A DNA stretch of 64,000 nt from Coraliomargarita sp. (GTDB lineage Bacteria > Verrucomicrobiota > Verrucomicrobiia > Opitutales > Coraliomargaritaceae): assembly GCA_965216325.1 (NCBI GenBank), contig OZ244160.1:2816001-2880000 (forward strand), written 5' to 3'. The notes under the pieces are model-generated. The model saw nothing but the letters and a program-made list of their open reading frames with translations, searched no databases and was not told the DNA's origin. Below, piece by piece: positions 26,030 through 39,016 of the stretch. Position numbers and translations under genes: made by a program. Position 1 is the stretch's first letter; each line of letters starts with the position of its first letter.

Positions 26030-26996
26030 ATGAAAAAAAAATACCAAATCATCAAAGACTCAGTGTTCGCAAACGTATCAACAGTTCTATGCGCATGTCC
26101 ATAGCAAAGCTCACTCGCCTCGTAGTCGTAAGGCTTATCTGGATTGGGTCAATCGCTTGGGCGAGCACTACCAACCGAAGGGCCCGGGGTTGCGCCGTCT
26201 ATCGGAACGTCAGGTGTTGGACTATCTGATCTACCTGCGCGACGACCAAAAGCTGGCCGCGTCAACGGTGAATCAGGCGCTGGTGCCGATTCGGACGCTT
26301 TACCGTGATGTGCTGGCCCGGGAGTGGAAGCTGTGGTCGGAGTTCACGCTGCAGCGGCGCGAGCCTTTGCCGAGCGTGCTCACGCGCGACGAGGTGCGGC
26401 GTGTGCTGGCCTGTGTGCATGAGGGTCGCTTTCGGGCGGTGCTCTCGCTGATCTATCACTGTGGTTTGCGTTTACAGGAGGCCTTGCAGCTCAAGCCGAC
26501 GGATATCGACTCTGGACGCGGCGTCGTTCGCGTGCGCCATGGCAAGGGCAACAAGGCGCGTGAGGTGCCGATTTGCCCGGCAATGGTCAAGCGGTTGCGG
26601 GCATTTTATAAGTGCCACCGCAATCCGGACTGGCTGTTCCCTGGCGTGGGGCGCGGCTGGAAGCAGTCAGGCATCTCTCAGGCGCAGGCGATGCACCGCA
26701 GCGCCAAGCCGATGAGCAGCTCGGCGCTGGAGATGGCGATGCGGATCATCCGCGCCAATAGTGGCATCAACAAGCACTTCACGGTGCATACCTTGCGGCA
26801 TAGTTTTGCCACACATTTGCTGGAGGACGGGGTGTCGATTCGTCAGGTCAGTCGCTATCTCGGCCACTCGGAACTGAAGAGCACGCTGGTGTATCTGCAT
26901 GTAACCGAGCTAAGTGAAGAAGGTGGCCGCCAGAGCCAGAGCGCACTGTTTGACAGTGTGATCGCTCCGGCCTTGTCGAAGCGCAGCAAGCGTTGA
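26030..26996 (+). CDS. Tyrosine recombinase (phage-integrase family). The ATG at 26030 is out of frame by one A in an A9 tract; the ORF track starts at TTG 26157
   Basis: [43 protein letters not shown]. The frame upstream of 26157 encodes SPRSRKAYLDWVNRL, resembling an N-terminal SAM-like domain. Confidence 0.88.
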
Positions 26997-28096
26997 GGCT
27001 GGCCGATCTACTGCGGCGGCATTGGCCGGAGTATGTCAGCGCGCGCGGCGGGGCACACAAGATCCCTGCCGCACACTGGCGAGCAGTCGAAGCCGTCTTG
27101 AGTTGTCGCACGTCTAGATTGGGCGGGCATGTGCACCTGTGTGCCAGTTGCGAGCGTGAGCACTATGTGTATCACAGCTGCAACCATCGAGCCTGTCCGA
27201 GTTGTGGAGGGCGCACGCAGCAGCTGTGGTCAGCACGCCAACAGGCTCGCCGCTTACCGGTGCCATACTTCATGCTGACCTTCACGGTGCCCGAGCAACT
27301 GCGCGGGTTCTTCCTGCGCTACGACCGGGTCGCCTATCAGTTGTTGTTCGCGGCCAGCTCTGGAGCGATCAAAGAACTGTTTGCCAATCCGAAGCACTTT
27401 GGTGGCGAGCCGGGCTTTGTGGCGGTGCTGCATACGTGGACACGGCAAGTGCAGTATCACCCGCATGTGCACGTGCTCGTGCCTGCCGCTGCACTCAGCC
27501 AGAGCGGATGCGAAGTAATCCGCGCCAAGCACGAGAACTACCTGTTGCCGTATGCCGCGCTGGCGCGCAGCTATCGCGACCAGTTCCTGCGTGCGTTGCG
27601 CGAGAAACATCCGGGCCGGTCTGCTGAACTGGATCCACAACTCGCGCGTATGGATTGGAACGTGAACGTTCAACCGGTTGGTCGTGGCAAACGTGCACTA
27701 CGCTACCTCGCGGCGTATGTGGGCAAGAGCGCCTTCAGTGAAGAACGTCTGGCTGGTTACGATGCGCAAGGGCGTGTGCGGCTATGGTGGACCGATTCGG
27801 CTACGGGCCAGCGCAGGCTGATGGCTCTTGAGCCCGCCGAGCTGATACGCCGCTGGCTGCTGCATGTTCTGCCCAAGGGGCTGACACGCGTGCGGCACTA
27901 TGGCACCCTCTCAGCTGCCGCGCGGGATAAATACCGCAGGCTGCGCTTCCTGCTCGGCGGCCGTGCACCTGCGATCCAACTACCTGAAGAACAGCCTCTG
28001 CGTTGTCCTTGTTGCGAGGGGCAGCTGCACCGCGTCGGCAAGCTCCGTCCAGTCCGTGGCCCACCGCTGAGCACCGCCTTACTTTACCGCAAATGA
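26993..28096 (+). CDS. IS91-family (HUH, Y2) rolling-circle transposase
   Basis: Zn-binding CRT...CASC...SCNHRACPSC, LHTW...HPHVH HUH motif, YLAAY Y2 motif, HVLPKG..RVRHYG. Confidence 0.93.
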   Translation: MRLADLLRRHWPEYVSARGGAHKIPAAHWRAVEAVLSCRTSRLGGHVHLCASCEREHYVYHSCNHRACPSCGGRTQQLWSARQQARRLPVPYFMLTFTVPEQLRGFFLRYDRVAYQLLFAASSGAIKELFANPKHFGGEPGFVAVLHTWTRQVQYHPHVHVLVPAAALSQSGCEVIRAKHENYLLPYAALARSYRDQFLRALREKHPGRSAELDPQLARMDWNVNVQPVGRGKRALRYLAAYVGKSAFSEERLAGYDAQGRVRLWWTDSATGQRRLMALEPAELIRRWLLHVLPKGLTRVRHYGTLSAAARDKYRRLRFLLGGRAPAIQLPEEQPLRCPCCEGQLHRVGKLRPVRGPPLSTALLYRK

Positions 28097-28395: not shown

Positions 28396-28451
28396 GTTCA
28401 ACAATCAGTTATCAACGCGGCTGCGCGCGATTGATAACTTCAGGGTTAGGC
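28396..28451 (-). other. attC site of cassette 6 (atypical body)
   Basis: GTTCAAC-AATC-AGTTATCAA CGCG...CGCG CGA TTGATAACT-TCAGG-GTTAGGC. The toxin stop codon lies in the R'' box; GTTAGGC is complementary to GCCTAAC at 28992. Confidence 0.8.
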
Positions 28452-28733
28452 CTTTTTGTAATTCTTTAAGTCTCTATAGAAGTTTTCATGGCTCCCATAC
28501 GTAAGTAGACTTATTTCACTTTCATCGAAGCTATAGGAAAGTAGTGTCAGCTGTTTATTGATTTTAAACTTATGGACGAATATTCCTGCAAGATCGCCAG
28601 CTTTTTCCTGACCAATGCTAGGATTTGAGAGGATGTCTAAAACTGCATCGTCTAATTCTTTCTTTTCCTGCTTTTTGAGCTTCTTCATTTTCCTGCTGAA
28701 CGCAGGGGATACGTAGACCTTCTGTTTAGCCAA
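28446..28733 (-). CDS. Cassette 6: RelE/ParE-family toxin
   Basis: 95 aa; NPSIGQEKAGDLAGIFVHKF, GSHENFYRDLK; overlaps the antitoxin stop. Confidence 0.88.
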   Translation of the reverse strand: MAKQKVYVSPAFSRKMKKLKKQEKKELDDAVLDILSNPSIGQEKAGDLAGIFVHKFKINKQLTLLSYSFDESEISLLTYGSHENFYRDLKNYKKA

Positions 28734-28944
28734 AAGTATATTCCTCCTTCTCAGCTTCTTTCATTTCCTCCATTGCTAATAGTGTTTCTTTAATGAAGCT
28801 GAAGGGTAGGTCTGGATTCTCTTCGGCAGCCTTTCCGATCGTTGCCCAATATTCCAACTGTGAAGTCATTGATCGATGCTCCACTTTGGATCTGGTTTTG
28901 GCTTCTTTTGCGAGATGGTCGGATATGCGAATAACAGTGCTCAT
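28726..28944 (-). CDS. Cassette 6: ParD-like antitoxin
   Basis: 72 aa; RSMTSQLEYWATIGKAAEENPDLP; upstream of the toxin, with a TTGACA hexamer in the cassette leader. Confidence 0.85.
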   Translation of the reverse strand: MSTVIRISDHLAKEAKTRSKVEHRSMTSQLEYWATIGKAAEENPDLPFSFIKETLLAMEEMKEAEKEEYTFG

Positions 28945-29059: not shown

Positions 29060-29711
29060 GTATGCCCGGCATGTTGATAAACTAATATGGTTAAAGTCCA
29101 TTGTGAGAGCCCTGAATAACAACTCAATCACTAGAGAAGCACAAGTGCGGAATCGTGAGGTTTCGTGCGGAAGCAGTGTGGATCAAACCGACGAGCCGAT
29201 GTATAAGAACGTCATAGGAGGCACAGAGGACGGGCGAGCGGGCCCGGGATCGCGAAGCCCATCAGGTCAGATCCGATGTGTAAATGGCGCGGTTGTGTCG
29301 GGGCAGTGTATCAACTTATCCGGGGAGGCCTCGGAGGTTCGCGTTGTGGCTTCAATGTGCCAATCAAGCATCGCAGTTGAAGCAGGGATGCTTCGATGAT
29401 GAACTTCCGAGGAGTCAGCAAAGGGCATAGTAGCCGCGGAGACGAGCTTGCCAGAGGCAGGACGGACTCACGAAGCGGTGAAGGCCTGAAGTCGATCATC
29501 ATCGGGACTCATTCAGTAGACACGTCCATAAACGCCGACCGTAGCGCGAGGACCTCTGATCTCTGTCTGATACAGCTCGAAGATACGTCTACTTTTGTAG
29601 GCGCGACAACCGCCTTAAAACAGACTGCGTAGCACTGCGATCAGTCTGGCTGCGGACCCGCATGGCAGGTGGTGTGGGAGCGGGGGGAGTTAATGCCCCT
29701 CGCTACCCGAT
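29060..29711 (+). mobile_element. Intron 1: ORF-less group IIC-type intron (652 nt) inserted in attC
   Basis: Starts GTATGCCCGGCATG; first 273 nt nearly identical to intron 2; D5/D6-like end ...CGCTACCCGAT; no RT ORF; removal restores the attC core. Confidence 0.9.
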
Positions 29712-29720
29712 TTCTACCAT

Positions 29721-29978
29721 TCAGTTGTAGTGGAAACGCATCTGGACGAAAGTGATTCCGTGATCGAATTGCTTGTACACAAGGCGATGCTCTTCAGTGA
29801 TTCTTCGGGACCAGTATCCACTTAAATTATGTTTGAGAGCTTCAGGCTTTCCAATGCCTTCATATGGAGAACGCGTGATGTCCTGAATCAGTAAGTGGAT
29901 TCTCTTTAGAGTCCTTTTATCTGTTTTCTGCCAGTACTGATAATCTTCCCATGCTTGTGGAGTGAAACTGATATTCAT
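29721..29978 (-). CDS. yoeB: Cassette 5: Txe/YoeB-family toxin
   Basis: AWEDYQYWQKTD, GIGKPEALKHNLSGYWSRRITEEHRLVY, RFHY. Confidence 0.95.
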   Translation of the reverse strand: MNISFTPQAWEDYQYWQKTDKRTLKRIHLLIQDITRSPYEGIGKPEALKHNLSGYWSRRITEEHRLVYKQFDHGITFVQMRFHYN

Positions 29979-30232
29979 TCTGAGAGATCAATTTCTTTTA
30001 CGGTAATATTCCCTGTTTCAGCCGCTTCGATGGATGCGATCAGTCTCTTCGCATTTGCAGGACTTCTTAGGAGGTGTGCAGTCTCTTCGAGGGCTTCATA
30101 GTCTTCCAAAGAGAGCATTACGACAGCCTGCTCCCTTTTTCTTGTTATGATTATTGGGTCTCGATCTAAGCAGACCTGATCCATTGTGGATGCTAGATTC
30201 TCTCTTGCGGCGGTGTAAGTAATAGCGTTCAT
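29975..30232 (-). CDS. yefM: Cassette 5: Phd/YefM-family antitoxin
   Basis: MNAITYTAARENLASTMDQV...VVMLSLEDYEALEETAHLLRSPANAKRL. The start must lie inside the cassette, below 30284. Confidence 0.93.
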   Translation of the reverse strand: MNAITYTAARENLASTMDQVCLDRDPIIITRKREQAVVMLSLEDYEALEETAHLLRSPANAKRLIASIEAAETGNITVKEIDLSE

Positions 30233-30234
30233 TG

Positions 30235-30270
30235 TGGACATCATACTGTCCATGTTCGCGCGGGGGTCAA
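30235..30270 (-). promoter_or_regulatory. yefM-yoeB promoter/operator
   Basis: TGGACA-N6-TGTCCA inverted repeat (two TGTACA-like cores, 12 bp centre to centre) overlapping TATGAT, with TTGACC upstream. Confidence 0.6.
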
Positions 30271-30338: not shown

Positions 30339-32230
30339 GTATGCCCGGCATGTTGATAAACTAATATGGTTAAAGTCCATTGTGAGAGCCCTGAATAACA
30401 ACTCAATCACTAGAGAAGCACAAGTGCGGAATCGTGAGGTTTCGTGCGGAAGCAGTGTGGATCAAACCGACGAGCCGATGTATAAGAACGTCATAGGAGG
30501 CACAGAGGACGGGCGAGCGGGCCCAGGATCGCGAAGCCCATCAGGTCAGATCCGATGTGTAAATGGCGCGGTTGTGTCGGGGCAGTGTATCAACTTATCC
30601 GGGGAGGCCTCTATCTGTGGCGAGCGTGAGCTTCAATGTGCTCACTCAAGCGCTTGCAGCGGTGACAGCAATGCCGTCGCTGTCACGGATGGAGGAGTCA
30701 GCAAAGGGCATAGTAGCCGCGGCGACGAGCCTGCCAGTGGCAGGATGGACTCACGAAGCGGTGAAGGCCCGCACTACGCATGGCAACCGGACTTGCCTCT
30801 GGAGCCCACCCATAAACGCCGGATGGCGCGCGGGCACGGGAATCCGGAGCAATACAGCCAGTTGCAAGCCGAGCTATTGGAGGCGATCTTCAGTAGCACC
30901 AACCTCGAAGCGGCCTATGGTCGTGTCAAAGCCAATGGCGGAGCCGCTGGTGTAGACGGCATTAGCTGGGCCGAGTTTACGGAATGGTTCATCCCGCGCC
31001 GTGAAGGTCTGCTGCGCCGCTTGCATCTGGGTAACTACCGCCCGAGTGCGGTGCGTCGTTGCTACATCCCAAAATCGAACGGCAAGAAACGCCCTTTGGG
31101 CGTGCCGAACCTGTTCGATCGGATCGTGCAACAAGCGATCCACCAAGTGCTCAGCCCGATGCTGGAGCCTTCGTTCAGCGAGCATAGTTTCGGGTTCCGC
31201 CCCAAGCGCGGCGGCCAACAGGCCGTCCGCGCCCTGCACGGGCACATCCGCAGCGGCTATCGCTGGGCAATCGACATCGACCTGAAGTCGTTCTTCGACA
31301 CAGTCCCGCACGCGCGTGCGTTGGAAGCACTACGCAATCGCCTCGGTGGGGATGGCCCCGTCGTGCGGTTGATTAAGCGCTACTTGGAAGCGGGCTATGT
31401 CGAACTGGACCAGTTCCACGAAACGGTCGAAGGTATGCCACAGGGCGGGCCCTTGAGTCCCTTGCTGTCGAATCTGGTGCTGGATGCACTGGATAAGGAA
31501 CTGGAGGCTCGGGGGCACCACTTCGTGCGCTACGCCGACGACTTTGTCGTGGTCGTTCAAAGCGAACGCGCTGCCAAGCGCGTCTTCTCCAGCATCTGCG
31601 ACTTCGTCGAGGGCGAGCTGGGGCTGACGGTCAACCGTGAGAAAAGCGCGGTGCGCCCGGTGCGTGAACTGAGCTACTTAGGCTTCAGTTTCCGTCAGGC
31701 CAAGATCGTGGTCAGTGCGCAGGCACTGGCCGAGTTCAAGTATCGTCTCAAGTGTTTCAGCTGTCGAAGCTGGAGCGTGTCGATGGACTACCGCCTGTAT
31801 CAGCTTCGTCAATACGCTCGAGGTTGGATGGGCTATTACGGCCTGTCCGAAGTTTACAGCGTGTGGCTGTCGATAGACAAGTGGCTTCGCAGGCGAGTTC
31901 GCATGTGCTACTGGCGCATGTGGAAACGCCCGCGACGTCGCTATCTCAATCTGGTGAAAATTGGCTCCAATAGTAAGTTTGCTGGTGGCTTTGCTAAAAG
32001 CTCAAAGGGCTACTGGCGTCTGGCTCAAGCGCTGGGCACACAAACGGCAATGAGCAATCAATGGCTAGAGGAACAAGGCCTGATCAACATCAGGCAACAA
32101 TGGTGGAGTTTAAAGCTCCTGCGTATAACCGCCTTAAAACAGACTGCGTAACACTGTGATCAGTCTGGCTGCGGACCCGCACGGCAGGTGGTGTGAGAGC
32201 CGGGGGACTTAGGGCCCTCGGCTACTCGAT
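30339..32230 (+). mobile_element. Intron 2: full-length group IIC-type intron (1892 nt) inserted in attC
   Basis: GTATG 5' end, RT/maturase ORF, modified D5, and D6 ending GGCTACTCGAT. Confidence 0.93.
30823..32151 (+). CDS. ltrA: Group II intron reverse transcriptase/maturase; no endonuclease domain seen; start uncertain
   Basis: NGGAAGVDG, RPLGVPNLFDRIVQQA, SFGFRP, DLKSFFD, PQGGPLSPLLSN, RYADDF, GWMGYY. Confidence 0.93.
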   Translation: MARGHGNPEQYSQLQAELLEAIFSSTNLEAAYGRVKANGGAAGVDGISWAEFTEWFIPRREGLLRRLHLGNYRPSAVRRCYIPKSNGKKRPLGVPNLFDRIVQQAIHQVLSPMLEPSFSEHSFGFRPKRGGQQAVRALHGHIRSGYRWAIDIDLKSFFDTVPHARALEALRNRLGGDGPVVRLIKRYLEAGYVELDQFHETVEGMPQGGPLSPLLSNLVLDALDKELEARGHHFVRYADDFVVVVQSERAAKRVFSSICDFVEGELGLTVNREKSAVRPVRELSYLGFSFRQAKIVVSAQALAEFKYRLKCFSCRSWSVSMDYRLYQLRQYARGWMGYYGLSEVYSVWLSIDKWLRRRVRMCYWRMWKRPRRRYLNLVKIGSNSKFAGGFAKSSKGYWRLAQALGTQTAMSNQWLEEQGLINIRQQWWSLKLLRITALKQTA

Positions 32231-33616: not shown

Positions 33617-35522
33617 GTGTGCCGAGCATGCGCTCGATGTAAAAGTGGTTAAAGTCCGCTATAGTAAGAACCTAATCATAAAATGAAAGAACTATTACCA
33701 GATGCCAAGGGCGTTGTCGTGAGGCAGGGTCTGAAGGAAGGCTATGGGAAAGCTGCGAGCTGATGAACAAAAACTGCATAGAAGGCCGACGTGGTCTGGT
33801 GAGCTGGCACCACACAGCGAAACCGCTAGGTTCAGCCACGCAGGTAAATGCAGCAGTTGTGCAGCGGAGCATCGAGTGCTTACCTCGGGAGGCCTCAGCG
33901 AGTGGCATGGGTTGGCTTAAAGGTGTCAATCAAGCCCATGCACCTGAGTCAGTAATGACACAGGCGGCACTGGTTGAGGATTCAGCAGCGAGCATAGTAG
34001 TCATGGAACCGCGAGCCATGAGTAGGTCGATAGGCCGAAGAGCATGGAGGTCTCGAACGTGATGAAGGCTCAAACCGTATATGGGCAGTCCGACCCGCAG
34101 GCAGGTTCACCTCTCACTGGCACAGACCCGTGTCGAGAGCTGGGCGATGTTTGTGCAGGGAAGCATGGGGCTGCCGAGCAAGAACTACTGGAGTTGATGC
34201 TGGACCGCGCTAATCTGAACGCAGCTTGGCGGCGTGTGCGCAGCAACGGTGGAGCTTCTGGCATCGACGGTATGTCGATCGAGGACTTTCTGCCGTTTGC
34301 GCGCGAGCACTGGTCACGGATCGAGACTCAACTGAAAGAGGGAACCTACCAGCCAGCCGCGGTGCGCCGCGTCTGGATACCGAAGGACAATGGGGAGAAG
34401 CGCCCACTGGGCATCCCCACGGTGTTGGATCGTGTGATCCAGCAAGCCATCGCTCAGGTAATTGCGCCGATCTTTGAGGCACAGTTCAGTGAGCACAGCT
34501 TCGGCTTTCGTCCAGAACGCCGAGCCCATGACGCAGTCAAGTCGATCCAAAGCGCAGCCACTGAAGGTCACGTGTACGCGGTCGATTGTGACCTGAAGTC
34601 ATTCTTCGACACGGTCGATCATCGTGAATTGATGCAGCGTCTAGCGCGCCGGATCAAAGACGGGCGCGTGCTGCGCCTGATCTACCGCTACCTGAAAGCA
34701 GGCATCCGCTTGCCCGATGGCAACACCGAGGCAACCGCCGAGGGGGTGCCACAGGGGGGACCGCTCAGTCCGCTACTGGCCAATATCATGCTCGATGACC
34801 TCGACCATGAACTCGAACAACGCGGGCACCGTTTCGCACGCTACGCCGACGATTTTGTTATCGTCGTCCAAAGCAAGCGAGCGGCTGAGCGCGTGATGCA
34901 CAGCATCAGTGGCTTCATCGAAGCGAAGCTCAAACTGATCGTGAATCGCGAGAAAACGAAGGCGGGTCGGCTGACACAGTGCAGCTTCCTCGGATTCGTG
35001 ATCTCGCCCAAGCGTATCCGCTGCTTGGATACCAAACTGCACACGTTCAAGAAGACCATCCGTCAAATCACCTGTCGCAGTTGGGGCATCTCCATGGAGG
35101 AACGCCTCGAACGTCTACGACTGTATGTGAATGGCTGGCTGGGTTACTTCGCTATCGGTGTGCCGTTCAAGGATATCCGCAGCATGGATCAATGGCTACG
35201 AAGGCGTGTGCGCTTGTGCTACTGGAAACAGTGGCGTTTACCGCGCACGCGCTACCGCAAGCTACGCGCGCTTGGGATCAACCCGAAGACGATTAAGCAG
35301 GCTAGTCGTTGTCGAAAAGGCTACTGGCGCTGCAGCAAACTGCGAGTGGTCAGTATCGCGATGAACAACCAATGGCTCGCCGAACAAGGCTGCCCCTCAA
35401 TCAAAGAACAGTGGCTCAAACTCTGCTATCCAAACGGATAGCTCTAACGGAACCGCCGTGCTACGGAGCCGTATGGCCGGTGGTGTGGGGGCGGGAGTCA
35501 GTGATGGCTCCCGCTACCCGAT
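33617..35522 (+). mobile_element. Intron 3: full-length group IIC-attC intron (1906 nt) of a second lineage
   Basis: Canonical GTGTG start; short class-C D5 ACCGCCG t GC TACG gagc CGTA tg GC CGGTGGT; ends CGCTACCCGAT; inserted at GT|T. Confidence 0.93.
34044..35441 (+). CDS. ltrA: Group II intron reverse transcriptase/maturase; start uncertain
   Basis: NGGASGIDG, RPLGIPTVLDRVIQQA, DLKSFFD, PQGGPLSPLLAN, RYADDF, GWLGYF. Confidence 0.95.
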   Translation: MEVSNVMKAQTVYGQSDPQAGSPLTGTDPCRELGDVCAGKHGAAEQELLELMLDRANLNAAWRRVRSNGGASGIDGMSIEDFLPFAREHWSRIETQLKEGTYQPAAVRRVWIPKDNGEKRPLGIPTVLDRVIQQAIAQVIAPIFEAQFSEHSFGFRPERRAHDAVKSIQSAATEGHVYAVDCDLKSFFDTVDHRELMQRLARRIKDGRVLRLIYRYLKAGIRLPDGNTEATAEGVPQGGPLSPLLANIMLDDLDHELEQRGHRFARYADDFVIVVQSKRAAERVMHSISGFIEAKLKLIVNREKTKAGRLTQCSFLGFVISPKRIRCLDTKLHTFKKTIRQITCRSWGISMEERLERLRLYVNGWLGYFAIGVPFKDIRSMDQWLRRRVRLCYWKQWRLPRTRYRKLRALGINPKTIKQASRCRKGYWRCSKLRVVSIAMNNQWLAEQGCPSIKEQWLKLCYPNG

Positions 35523-35592: not shown

Positions 35593-36454
35593 TTAGAAGA
35601 AATCATCGACGGCCTGGTCTTCTTTAGCCTCTTCCTGAGCTTTTCTCTGTTCCATTTTATTAATTAAGTCTTCCTCGGCTCCTTTAAAGAGTGGGGTCGA
35701 ATGAGTCAGCAGGTATATTTCCTCGATGTTACGGGAATTCACTTTTTCCCATAGGGCATCGATCATAGCTCGGACTTCGGGCATAGTGTTGTAAGCTGAT
35801 CTGTCTACATTCATATTTCGCATCATCTTATCTTTGGTGAGGCCCTCTTTTGCACTCTCTGATAAATTACCGTAAATTTTAGAATAGATAACTCGACCGT
35901 AATTGGTGCTATTCGAATGTGTTACACGAGTTTGAAAACCATCTATTCTTTCCTCCTTGCTCTCATCGAGCTTACCAAACCTCTTGCGAATCGCTGCGTC
36001 CATTTTAGGTTCAAGATCGATATCAACTTTTTTAATTACCCCGAAAAACCGATTATTTATGGATAGAACTGTTGAACCGTCATGTTGGATCGCAGTGATA
36101 TAATTTCTGATCTCACTTAATTGAGGAAATGCTTTCAAGATGTCTGCGTCTAATTTATTGAGTGATACGTTAGGCAACTGATAGGAATCTAGCTGGGTTT
36201 TCTGATATATCTTGAGGAAATCTTCGATCGGAATTCCCCAGGGAATATCTTTATACCCTTTGTAAACGGACGAATCTGCAGTGACATGATTTTTGACTAG
36301 TTCATCAATTGCGGCTTTGGACTTTTGCTCTTGTCGCTCAATCTCAGCCTTACGCTCCTCTTCGGCAATGCGTCGCTCTTCCGCTTTGCGGGCTTCCTCA
36401 GCCTTACGCTCCTCTTCGGCAATGCGTCGCTCTTCCGCTTTGCGGGCTTCCTCA
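35593..36454 (-). pseudogene. Cassette 2: 5'-truncated hypothetical gene fused to the intron 4 fragment
   Basis: AT-rich ORF; sequence beyond 36454 is the antisense of an RT gene; its expected start core site (TGCGAAC on +) is absent. Confidence 0.75.
36343..36454. repeat. 54-bp exact tandem repeat (two copies plus CTCA) encoding EARKAEERRIAEEERKAE
   Basis: CTCAGCCTTACGCTCCTCTTCGGCAATGCGTCGCTCTTCCGCTTTGCGGGCTTC at 36343 and 36397. Confidence 0.92.
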
Positions 36455-36925
36455 CCCGTCGCAACTGGAGTGTGAGTATGGAGTATCGTCTGTATCAGAT
36501 CCGCCAATACGTGCGGGGCTGGATGGGCTACTTCGGACTCAGTGAAAACTCCAGTTTATGGATCTGGATTGACCGCTGGCTTCGCAGGCGAGTTCGCATG
36601 TGCTACTGGCGCATGTGGAAACGCCCGCGACGTCGCTATCTCAATCTGGTGAAAATTGGCTCCAATAGTAAGTTTGCTGGTGGCTTTGCTAAAAGCTCAA
36701 AGGGCTACTGGCGTCTGGCTCAAGCGCTGGGCACACAAACGGCAATGAGCAATCAATGGCTAGAGGAACAAGGCCTGATCAACATCAGGCAACAATGGTG
36801 GAGTTTAAAGCTCCTGCGTATAACCGCCTTAAAACAGACTGCGTAACACTGTGATCAGTCTGGCTGCGGACCCGCACGGCAGGTGGTGTGAGAGCCGGGG
36901 GACTTAGTGCCCTCGGCTACTCGAT
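36451..36925 (+). mobile_element. Intron 4: 5'-deleted group II intron fragment (maturase C-terminus plus D5/D6)
   Basis: LTRRNWSVSMEYRLYQIRQYVRGWMGYF...TALKQTA. 36577-36925 matches 31882-32230 apart from one base I saw in D6. Followed by TTCTGC, the remnant R'' of cassette 1. Confidence 0.9.
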
Positions 36926-37690: not shown

Positions 37691-39016
37691 ATGTTGGGGT
37701 GTATGAAAACAGTTCATTTTCCACGTTGGGCGGAGGTCTTGCGCGAATCCTCTTTAGGGGAGGAGTTGCGTTCGAGTTATAAGGTCACGATTCGCTGGTA
37801 TTTGAGTTGGTGTGCCAAGCAGCATATCGGCTGTTCGGTTGAGTCGGCGCGTGCCTTTGTTGATTGGGCAATCAATGAGAAGCAACCTAAAGATTGGGTC
37901 ATTAGCCGTTGGCAGGCTGCGATTCGCTGGTTCTTCGTGACAGCAAAGGAGCAGGCGGCACCAGGGGGCGGAGTGAGTCAGGAGCAGAGTGGGGACGCTC
38001 CTGCGCTAACTGCACTGGAGCGGCGAGATTTGGAGGCGGAAGAGCGGGTTGAGGCGGCGAACGACGATGAAGGGCGGATTTTAGCGGTGATGCGACGACG
38101 CGGGATGGCTCTGCGAACTGAGCGGGCCTATTTGGGGCACTATCGTAGTTTTGTGCGCCAGTCGGGTTTGGTGGATGGCTGTTTGATGTCGGCTTCGATG
38201 GTTAAGCGCTACTTGGATTATTTGGCGATGGAGCGTGCAGTGGCGTCCTCGACGCAGAAGGGGGCGCTCAATGCCTTGGTGTTCATCGCACAGGCTGTTT
38301 TCGGCATTGAACTGGGGGATATTGGTGACTTTGTGCGCGCGAAGAATCGGAGGCGTATTCCGGTGGTGATGACTAAGGAGGAGTTGCGTTTGTTCTTTCA
38401 GCAATTGAGCGGTGAGAAGCTATTGATGGCCCGGGTGCAATATGCGGCCGGCTTGCGTGTCTCCGATCTATGCCGTTTGCGTGTGCAGGATTTGGATCTG
38501 CAGCGTAATCAGTTGGTTGTGCGCTGTGGTAAGGGGCACAAGGATCGAGTGGCACCCTTACCTGAGTTGTTGAAGTCCGAATTGGAGGCGCAGTTGTCTG
38601 TTGTGCGGAGCCTATTCGATGAAGATTTACAGCGTAGTGATCTTGCGGGGGTTTATCTGCCTGAGGCCTTGGCGCGGCGACACAAGAATGCGGGGCGAGA
38701 TTGGCGTTGGCAATGGGTGTGGCCGAGTCGTAAGATCTCCACGGATCCACGCGGTGGGAAACGTCGTCGGCATCACGTGTTGCCGAATACTTATCAGCGC
38801 ATTGTTCAAGATGCAGGAAAGGACGCTGGGCTGACCAAGCGAATTACGAGTCACACCTTACGGCACAGTTTTGCCACGCACTTACTGGAGGATGGCGTGG
38901 ACATCCGGACGGTGCAGGACTTGCTCGGACACAAGCATATCGAGACGACCCAGATTTACCTGCACGTCATGCAGAAGCCGGGGGCGGGGGTGCGCAGCCC
39001 GCTGGAAACGCTTTGA
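37691..39016 (+). CDS. intI: Integron integrase with an N-terminal extension (start 37691 or 37703)
   Basis: [16 protein letters not shown], the IntI-specific insertion [27 protein letters not shown]...[39 protein letters not shown]. Confidence 0.97.

Follow-up and report, generated by a model that had tools for sequence, protein, structure and literature searches.

The closest described relatives of the elements considered here are the IIC-attC introns, class C (IIC) group II introns of the S.ma.I2 and E.c.I7 type, which were reportedly characterised by Quiroga in 2008 and by Leon and Roy in 2009 and 2010. Extra RNA elements are also said to occur in class B introns, where a 3' extension (domain VII, as in B.c.I4) was reportedly described by Stabell in 2007 and 2009. 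In the spliceosome, the U2/U6 small nuclear RNA junction holds a triad helix and a bulged stem-loop (the U6 internal stem-loop, the analogue of intron domain 5, D5) within a multi-helix junction. Four class C introns of the IIC-attC type lie between the gene cassettes of an integron in a 64,000-nt stretch of a Coraliomargarita sp. genome (C1:2816001-2880000 of a 3.06-Mb single-contig genome; hereafter the window), all on the + strand, antisense to the cassette open reading frames (ORFs) and near the integrase gene intI. Three of them, hereafter type B, carry a 33-nt hairpin-bearing insert inside D5. We think it fairly probable that this element is a selected, RNA-level expansion of the catalytic D5 in an active and mobile IIC-attC-type intron lineage.

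In every tested respect but the length and continuity of D5, the introns of the window fit the IIC-attC type: they have class C boundaries, a reverse transcriptase (RT)/maturase without an endonuclease domain, and insertion at attC hairpins antisense to cassette genes. The class C boundary consensus (5' GUNYGCCNRGCAUGG, 3' CCUACYCGAU; PMC4028801; here and below, papers cited by PMC number are cited for the parts available to us) is matched by introns 1 and 2 (5' GUAUGCCCGGCAUGU, 3' GCUACUCGAU / GCUACCCGAU) and by intron 3 (GUGUGCCGAGCAUGC). The D1-D4 ribozyme portion of introns 1 and 2 scored 100-127 bits with RF02001 and 41-49 bits with RF01998 (gathering scores 32 and 35), and that of intron 3 scored 26 bits with RF01998, below gathering. 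The 442-residue protein of intron 2 has the Pfam domains RVT_1 and GIIM only, as an IIC-type RT/maturase does. The 5' exons are imperfect hairpins ending in ...CTGG| and the 3' exons start with TTC, which places the introns at the G|TT point of attC-like sites, on the strand opposite to the cassette genes; insertion at attC sites antisense to cassettes is a known habit of IIC-attC introns (PMC4424553, PMC3001079). Where the window lineage has a branched D5 of 65 nt, the Escherichia coli p4M9F intron, located beside aadA1 on a clinical plasmid, has an ordinary D5 of 32 nt, and its RT is only ~46% identical. The best plasmid RT matches were integron-associated ltrA genes (~46% pairwise identity), and a plasmid tblastn search with the RTs of type B and of a second insert-bearing lineage (type C, below) returned only matches under 60% identity.

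An ordinary D5 in this lineage is a 32-nt hairpin in which a lower helix of 9 bp, which includes the CGC triad, is followed by an upper helix of 4 bp and a loop of 4 nt, with two bulged nucleotides on the 3' strand, as found at loci L008 and L011 and in 115 of 120 viral-contig D5s among the matches listed. Intron 3 has a 33-nt D5 in which, as the original prediction had it, a single U (35459) is bulged from the 5' strand between bp 7 and 8. Introns 1, 2 and 4 have, between the same two base pairs, a 33-nt insert composed of UAAAA and a hairpin, so that the D5 reads ACCGCCU (bp 1-7), UAAAA, CAGACUG + 14-nt tip + CAGUCUG, GC (bp 8-9), UGCG-GACC-CGCA, YG, GC, AGGUGGU (Table 1). The CGC triad, the bulge and both helices are retained, and the whole is no longer the short continuous hairpin of a class C D5. 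Reading of the sequence and a pattern search agreed on the insert positions originally proposed, and the RT ORF of intron 2 does run through ACC GCC and end inside the insert. The prediction had the insert replacing the bulged T: the spot is the same, but the insert is better described as coming after a bulged U, one found repeatedly in other IIC introns. The hairpin pattern CAGACTG-N14-CAGTCTG occurs three times in the window (29621-29648, 32140-32167 and 36835-36862), against zero expected from 100 shuffles.

Table 1 Coordinates of the integrase gene and of the four introns in the window.
Feature	Position	Strand	Description
Intron 1	29060-29711	+	ORF-less type B class C intron, 652 nt; 5' GUAUGCCCGGCAUG, 3' CUACCCGAU; Rfam D1D4-3 and D1D4-1 matches
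Intron 1 D5	29609-29673	+	65 nt; insert 29616-29648
Intron 2	30339-32230	+	Full-length type B class C intron, 1892 nt
Intron 2 RT/maturase ORF	30823-32151	+	442 aa, RVT_1 + GIIM; stop TAA 32149-32151 in the apical part of the insert
Intron 2 D5	32128-32192	+	65 nt; insert 32135-32167 (UAAAA linker 32135-32139, hairpin 32140-32167); 5' strand of lower helix 32128-32134 and, as bp 8-9, 32168-32169; upper helix and loop 32170-32181; 2-nt bulge 32182-32183; 3' strand 32184-32192
Intron 3	33617-35522	+	Full-length class C intron, different lineage; D5 35452-35484
Intron 4	36452-36925	+	5'-truncated type B copy; D5 36823-36887, insert 36830-36862
Integron integrase intI	37691-39016	+	TIGR02249 357.5 bits (cut-off 265), match span 38084-39013; Pfam Phage_integrase

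Folding of the intron 3' ends supports the predicted three-way junction. In the minimum free energy (MFE) and centroid structures of all three insert-bearing ends (z-scores -4.0, -3.0 and -3.0), ACCGCCU pairs with AGGUGGU as a 7-bp lower stem, and the insert hairpin forms alongside the upper D5 helix; all 23 proposed pairs are kept across nine distinct type B haplotypes. An alternative canonical D5 built with the 3' strand of the insert was ruled out: hand pairing yielded no canonical D5 that excludes the insert, and the MFE folds retain it. The original prediction was wrong about the Rfam Intron_gpII model (RF00029, D5-D6), which was expected to match intron 3 and to match the others weakly or not at all; it matched none of the four introns, the normal-length intron 3 included, at E values up to 10. 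Because even intron 3 is unmatched, this model is uninformative for the lineage.

The three inserts first noticed in the window are part of a wider set that takes in five copies at five sites in this genome (the other two at C1:554072 and C1:2273407), two further Verrucomicrobiota genomes and 14 metagenome loci. A second full-length copy at C1:552279-554175 is 80% identical to intron 2 overall and has an identical insert. In a whole-genome search the hairpin occurred nowhere beyond the intron D5 copies, which rules it out as an independent dispersed repeat. With a scan of RTs (one genome per species), the insert was also recovered from Pelagicoccus sp. and a Verrucomicrobia metagenome-assembled genome, whose RTs are 71-73% identical; more distant RT relatives (41-46% identity) had a normal D5. 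Metagenome contigs were scanned with a pattern that fixed the D5 frame, allowed any 22-52 nt before the upper helix and left the insert sequence unspecified, thereby covering 5'-strand insertions. Of the 54 loci obtained, 14 were of type B and 12 of type C; seven other insert types accounted for 10, an ordinary D5 matched through a chance upstream AACCGCC for 16, and 2 were unclear (L037 and L042).

Conservation of the insert contrasts sharply with its surroundings. Among five distinct full-length type B introns, which are 76-88% identical, 28 of the 33 insert positions are invariant and all five variable ones lie in the hairpin tip, whereas the share of variable columns in other parts of the intron is 32-39% (153/484 in D1-D3 and 509/1305 in the ORF) and D6 varies at 18/38. 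Thirteen ORF-bearing rows gave a similar picture (variable columns 44/96 upstream, 5/33 in the insert and 23/42 in D6), and the UAAAA linker and 7-bp stem are constant in 20 distinct sequences. Since the search pattern placed no constraint on the insert sequence, ascertainment does not account for this invariance. An invariant stem beside the compensatory turnover of D6 suggests, at the level of sequence comparison, that the insert may be recognised sequence-specifically rather than acting as a mere spacer.

Part of this conservation might be sought in the protein, the insert being kept for the C-terminal tail of the RT (LKQTA) and its stop codon, given that the type B ORF ends at a UAR inside the insert in every ORF-bearing copy. 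This coding explanation is already disfavoured and in our view very improbable. At least three independent ORF-less or ORF-deleted type B derivatives (intron 1, L005, L032/L052/L054 and L029/L051) retain a D5 with an unchanged insert, the non-coding 3' half of the insert is as invariant as the rest, and in type C the ORF already ends 12 nt ahead of D5. The conservation thus cannot be put down to coding.

Covariation within the insert, which the original prediction had proposed to look for among homologues, was found at one compensatory pair in the tip, the basal stem being without variation. Tip positions 17 (the R of the UAR stop) and 23 change together, as G-C in six and A-U in three of nine haplotypes, a degree of association reached by 7 of 500 shuffles. 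Copies with A-U belong to both RT sub-clades and differ in their D6 type; an alternative tip pairing (G-C or G.U) fits equally well.

The feature was at first taken to be limited to one lineage, which proved too narrow: a second, separate IIC lineage (type C) has a different hairpin at the identical position. Its D5 reads ACCGCCG-[UAAAA GCAACC GAAA GGUUGU]-CC-UACG-GAUC-CGUA-CG-GG-CGGUGGU, so that the exit after bp 7 and the UAAAA linker are as in type B, while the hairpin, of 6 bp and capped by a GNRA loop (GAAA), bears no relation to that of type B. The 12 type C loci have 12 different 3' exons, and one is labelled as human gut metagenome. A protein search with the type C RT returned many near-identical metagenome proteins; its relatives in viral contigs (at most 50% identity) all have a normal or bulged-U D5, and a plasmid megablast with a type C intron gave no match. 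RT trees (a quick IQ-TREE run with 22 rows, and FastTree with 29 rows, from which the very long branch L017 was omitted and for which 10 of 19 viral loci were used) recovered types B and C each as one clade, set apart from the other and placed among relatives with normal-length D5: intron 3 (bulged U), L024, L008 and L212 for type B; L195 (bulged U), L196, L197 and L198 for type C. Their separation points to two gains or to transfer of an RNA module.

Seven further insert types of 21-48 nt were found on the 5' strand of IIC D5s (L014, L019/L045, L023, L036/L044, L040, L048/L058 and L049). The chain exits after bp 7 in L014, L023 and L048/L058, and after bp 9, opposite the catalytic bulge, in L019/L045 and L049; one hairpin shows a compensatory A-U to C-G change between L048 and L058. 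A single bulged U between bp 7 and 8 is present in otherwise ordinary IIC introns (intron 3, L038 and L195; L017 has a small internal loop there) and in 5 of the 120 viral-contig D5s among the matches listed (L089, L108, L166, L171 and L178). Since the bulged-U form appears among the nearest relatives of types B and C and in viral D5s, the bp 7/8 backbone position is a recurrent soft spot of the IIC D5.

Such a soft spot also lends itself to a neutral explanation, in which a small insertion at a bulge-tolerant place in D5 is carried along without function. Tolerance of the bulged U in several lineages, the freely varying hairpin tip, the rarity of insert-bearing lineages and the unrelated sequences of the seven other insert types are all in keeping with it. 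A passenger would not be expected to show 28 of 33 invariant positions where other parts of the same introns vary in 32-39% of columns and D6 undergoes compensatory turnover, nor to share an identical UAAAA linker with a separate lineage, and we consider this explanation unlikely.

We rate as similarly unlikely a function of the insert on the opposite strand or at the DNA level. The complement of the insert is a hairpin followed by UUUUA in both lineages, resembling a terminator or an IIC target, and with introns antisense to the cassettes and facing the cassette promoter it could stop read-through from that promoter. A IIC-attC intron has been reported to impede cassette transcription (Leon et al. 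2010, PMC3001079), and a role of this kind would explain the common UAAAA without an RNA tertiary function. Several details fit poorly, however. A consensus terminator scan left the insert unflagged (it has only four U and a 14-nt loop); the basal G.U pair of type C and a U.G variant in L056 become A.C mismatches on the antisense strand; the type C loop is a GNRA tetraloop (GAAA) on the sense strand; and no antisense-oriented intron insertion was seen at the insert motif.

That the lineage stayed mobile while carrying the insert, as originally proposed, is supported by comparison of copies. Besides the five sites in this genome, the 21 type B copies have at least 15 different flanks, every 5' exon sequenced has an attC-like hairpin immediately before its end, and intact RT ORFs (RVT_1 + GIIM) persist in diverged copies. 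Contigs from four sequencing runs contained no intron-less joined form (the ORF-less copy was cross-mapped only), and some attC-like contigs in them end at the intron 5' boundary. If the insert had instead inactivated D5, the copies would be relics, and intron 4 is indeed truncated and intron 1 lacks an ORF; the many distinct and precise insertion sites, the intact RT ORFs in diverged copies and the strong conservation of both insert and D5 make this scarcely credible.

Several copies show further peculiarities. Intron 1 aligns with positions 1-431 and 1789-1892 of intron 2. The first ~130 nt of intron 4 have diverged from intron 2 and the remainder is near-identical, which suggests a recombinant, and a 54-nt tandem duplication (36343-36450) in the - strand ORF 35593-36507 abuts this 5'-truncated copy. 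Tandem introns were seen at L007:3900-3920 and, after D6, in L033: a second intron of the same type starts directly after the ...CUCGAU 3' end, and the D6 of one intron looks to have served as a stem-loop target for another.

A conserved D5 branch in an active-looking lineage, mirrored in a second one, is a real feature and not a product of chance; how it works we infer from helix geometry and known structures. If the insert is a selected expansion of D5, the chain would leave the 5' strand of the 9-bp lower helix between its seventh and eighth base pairs, pass through the UAAAA linker and a 7-bp hairpin with a variable tip, and re-enter the helix without a spacer, forming a three-way junction. 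Zero-nucleotide linkers usually join coaxially stacked helices (PMC3575829); because the 3' strand has no spacer between the lower and upper helices, these should stay coaxial and the catalytic geometry of D5 should be kept. The exit point would share a strand with the triad and lie 5 nt to its 3' side; in an A-form helix this amounts to a rotation of ~165 degrees, to a face pointing away from the triad and bulge phosphates. Being roughly opposite the triad phosphates, it would allow the branch to project from the non-catalytic back of D5, the side that is braced by D3 and an A-stacking interaction in cryo-electron microscopy of a IIC ribonucleoprotein (RNP; PMC10190682). The A-rich linker and hairpin could plausibly provide an additional tertiary or maturase contact that braces D5 in the core. 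A broader form of this proposal, which we regard as possible though somewhat short of probable, is that the IIC D5 has been made into a three-way junction independently at least twice by a UAAAA-hairpin at a recurrent bulged-U site, that the branch is obligatory in the ribozyme or RNP as a new tertiary brace or maturase anchor, and that the 5' strand is a general hot spot for expansion.

Several observations weigh against the reading of the insert as a selected and working part of D5. Because the basal 7-bp stem is invariant, covariation within type B lends its pairing no support, and the case for it draws on thermodynamics and the comparable hairpin of type C. A scan of six sequences, which is underpowered, detected no covarying long-range partner for the freely varying tip. 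Where the exit point lies with respect to the D1 and D3 contacts was worked out from the geometry of the helix rather than from coordinates, and the evidence for activity and mobility is comparative throughout (many sites, an intact ORF and conservation). Although an approximately unbiased (AU) test on 18 chosen rows rejected a single clade of types B and C (delta lnL 37, p 0.004), it is weakened because the group was named after the tree had been seen and the rows were our own choice. The feature is also rare: in a sample of 401 genomes from the phylum, the pattern was confined to the genome of the window itself, and gap patterns of 5-35 and 30-55 nt gave no match in viral contigs, against at least 120 normal D5s.

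As a variant of the known IIC-attC introns, the D5 branch appears to be undescribed. A full-text literature search, which reached some of the subscription literature but not all, found no description of an insertion in D5 (domain V), in agreement with the original prediction that no such intron class has been described; the accessible parts of the Zimmerly review, the database and pipeline papers, Toro 2013, Monachello 2016 and Leon 2010 mention none. The nearest parallels are the class B 3' extension (domain VII) and the CL1 5' insertions, which are lineage-specific extra elements on active introns (PMC4424553, PMC4028801). Like the insert of the window, they are RNA elements added to an otherwise canonical group II ribozyme; unlike it, they lie after D6 or at the 5' end, outside the domain cores, whereas the insert is inside the catalytic domain. 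The likeness to U2/U6, whose parallels with the group II D5 are reviewed in PMC4424553, is that a triad-bearing helix sits in a multi-helix junction instead of one continuous hairpin. In the spliceosome the junction forms between molecules and the branch is on the other strand; no homology is implied.

The cassette array that houses the introns runs leftwards from intI on the - strand; besides ParD/ParE and YefM/YoeB pairs it includes several ORFs that belong to no Pfam family. Each of the toxin-antitoxin pairs (ParD/ParE-like, 28449-28944; YefM/YoeB, 29724-30253; Pfam) is flanked by an attC that an intron occupies. At the far end of the cassette stretch, a tyrosine recombinase gene is followed directly by an IS91-family transposase gene (Y2_Tnp + Zn_Tnp_IS91; 26157-28096 for both). 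Three integron integrase genes in the 3.06-Mb genome score above the TIGR02249 cut-off (C1 2766502, 2854084 and 811175), and the genome also contains the intron 3 family in about five copies and a third RT family in six.

Intron-finding pipelines and covariance models depend on D5, which is regarded as the only part of a group II intron that is invariant and can be recognised reliably. If our reading is right, the branched D5 would be a previously unrecognised structural variety of group II ribozymes, which D5-based searches miss. A conserved branch in introns that multiply shows where the catalytic helix can open without loss of function, raises the prospect of a new contact at the back of the active site, and offers a natural entry site for engineering (tags, aptamers and split ribozymes). 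It also bears on models of how D5 became part of the multi-helix U2/U6 junction, as a core catalytic element that tolerates, and may use, a side branch.

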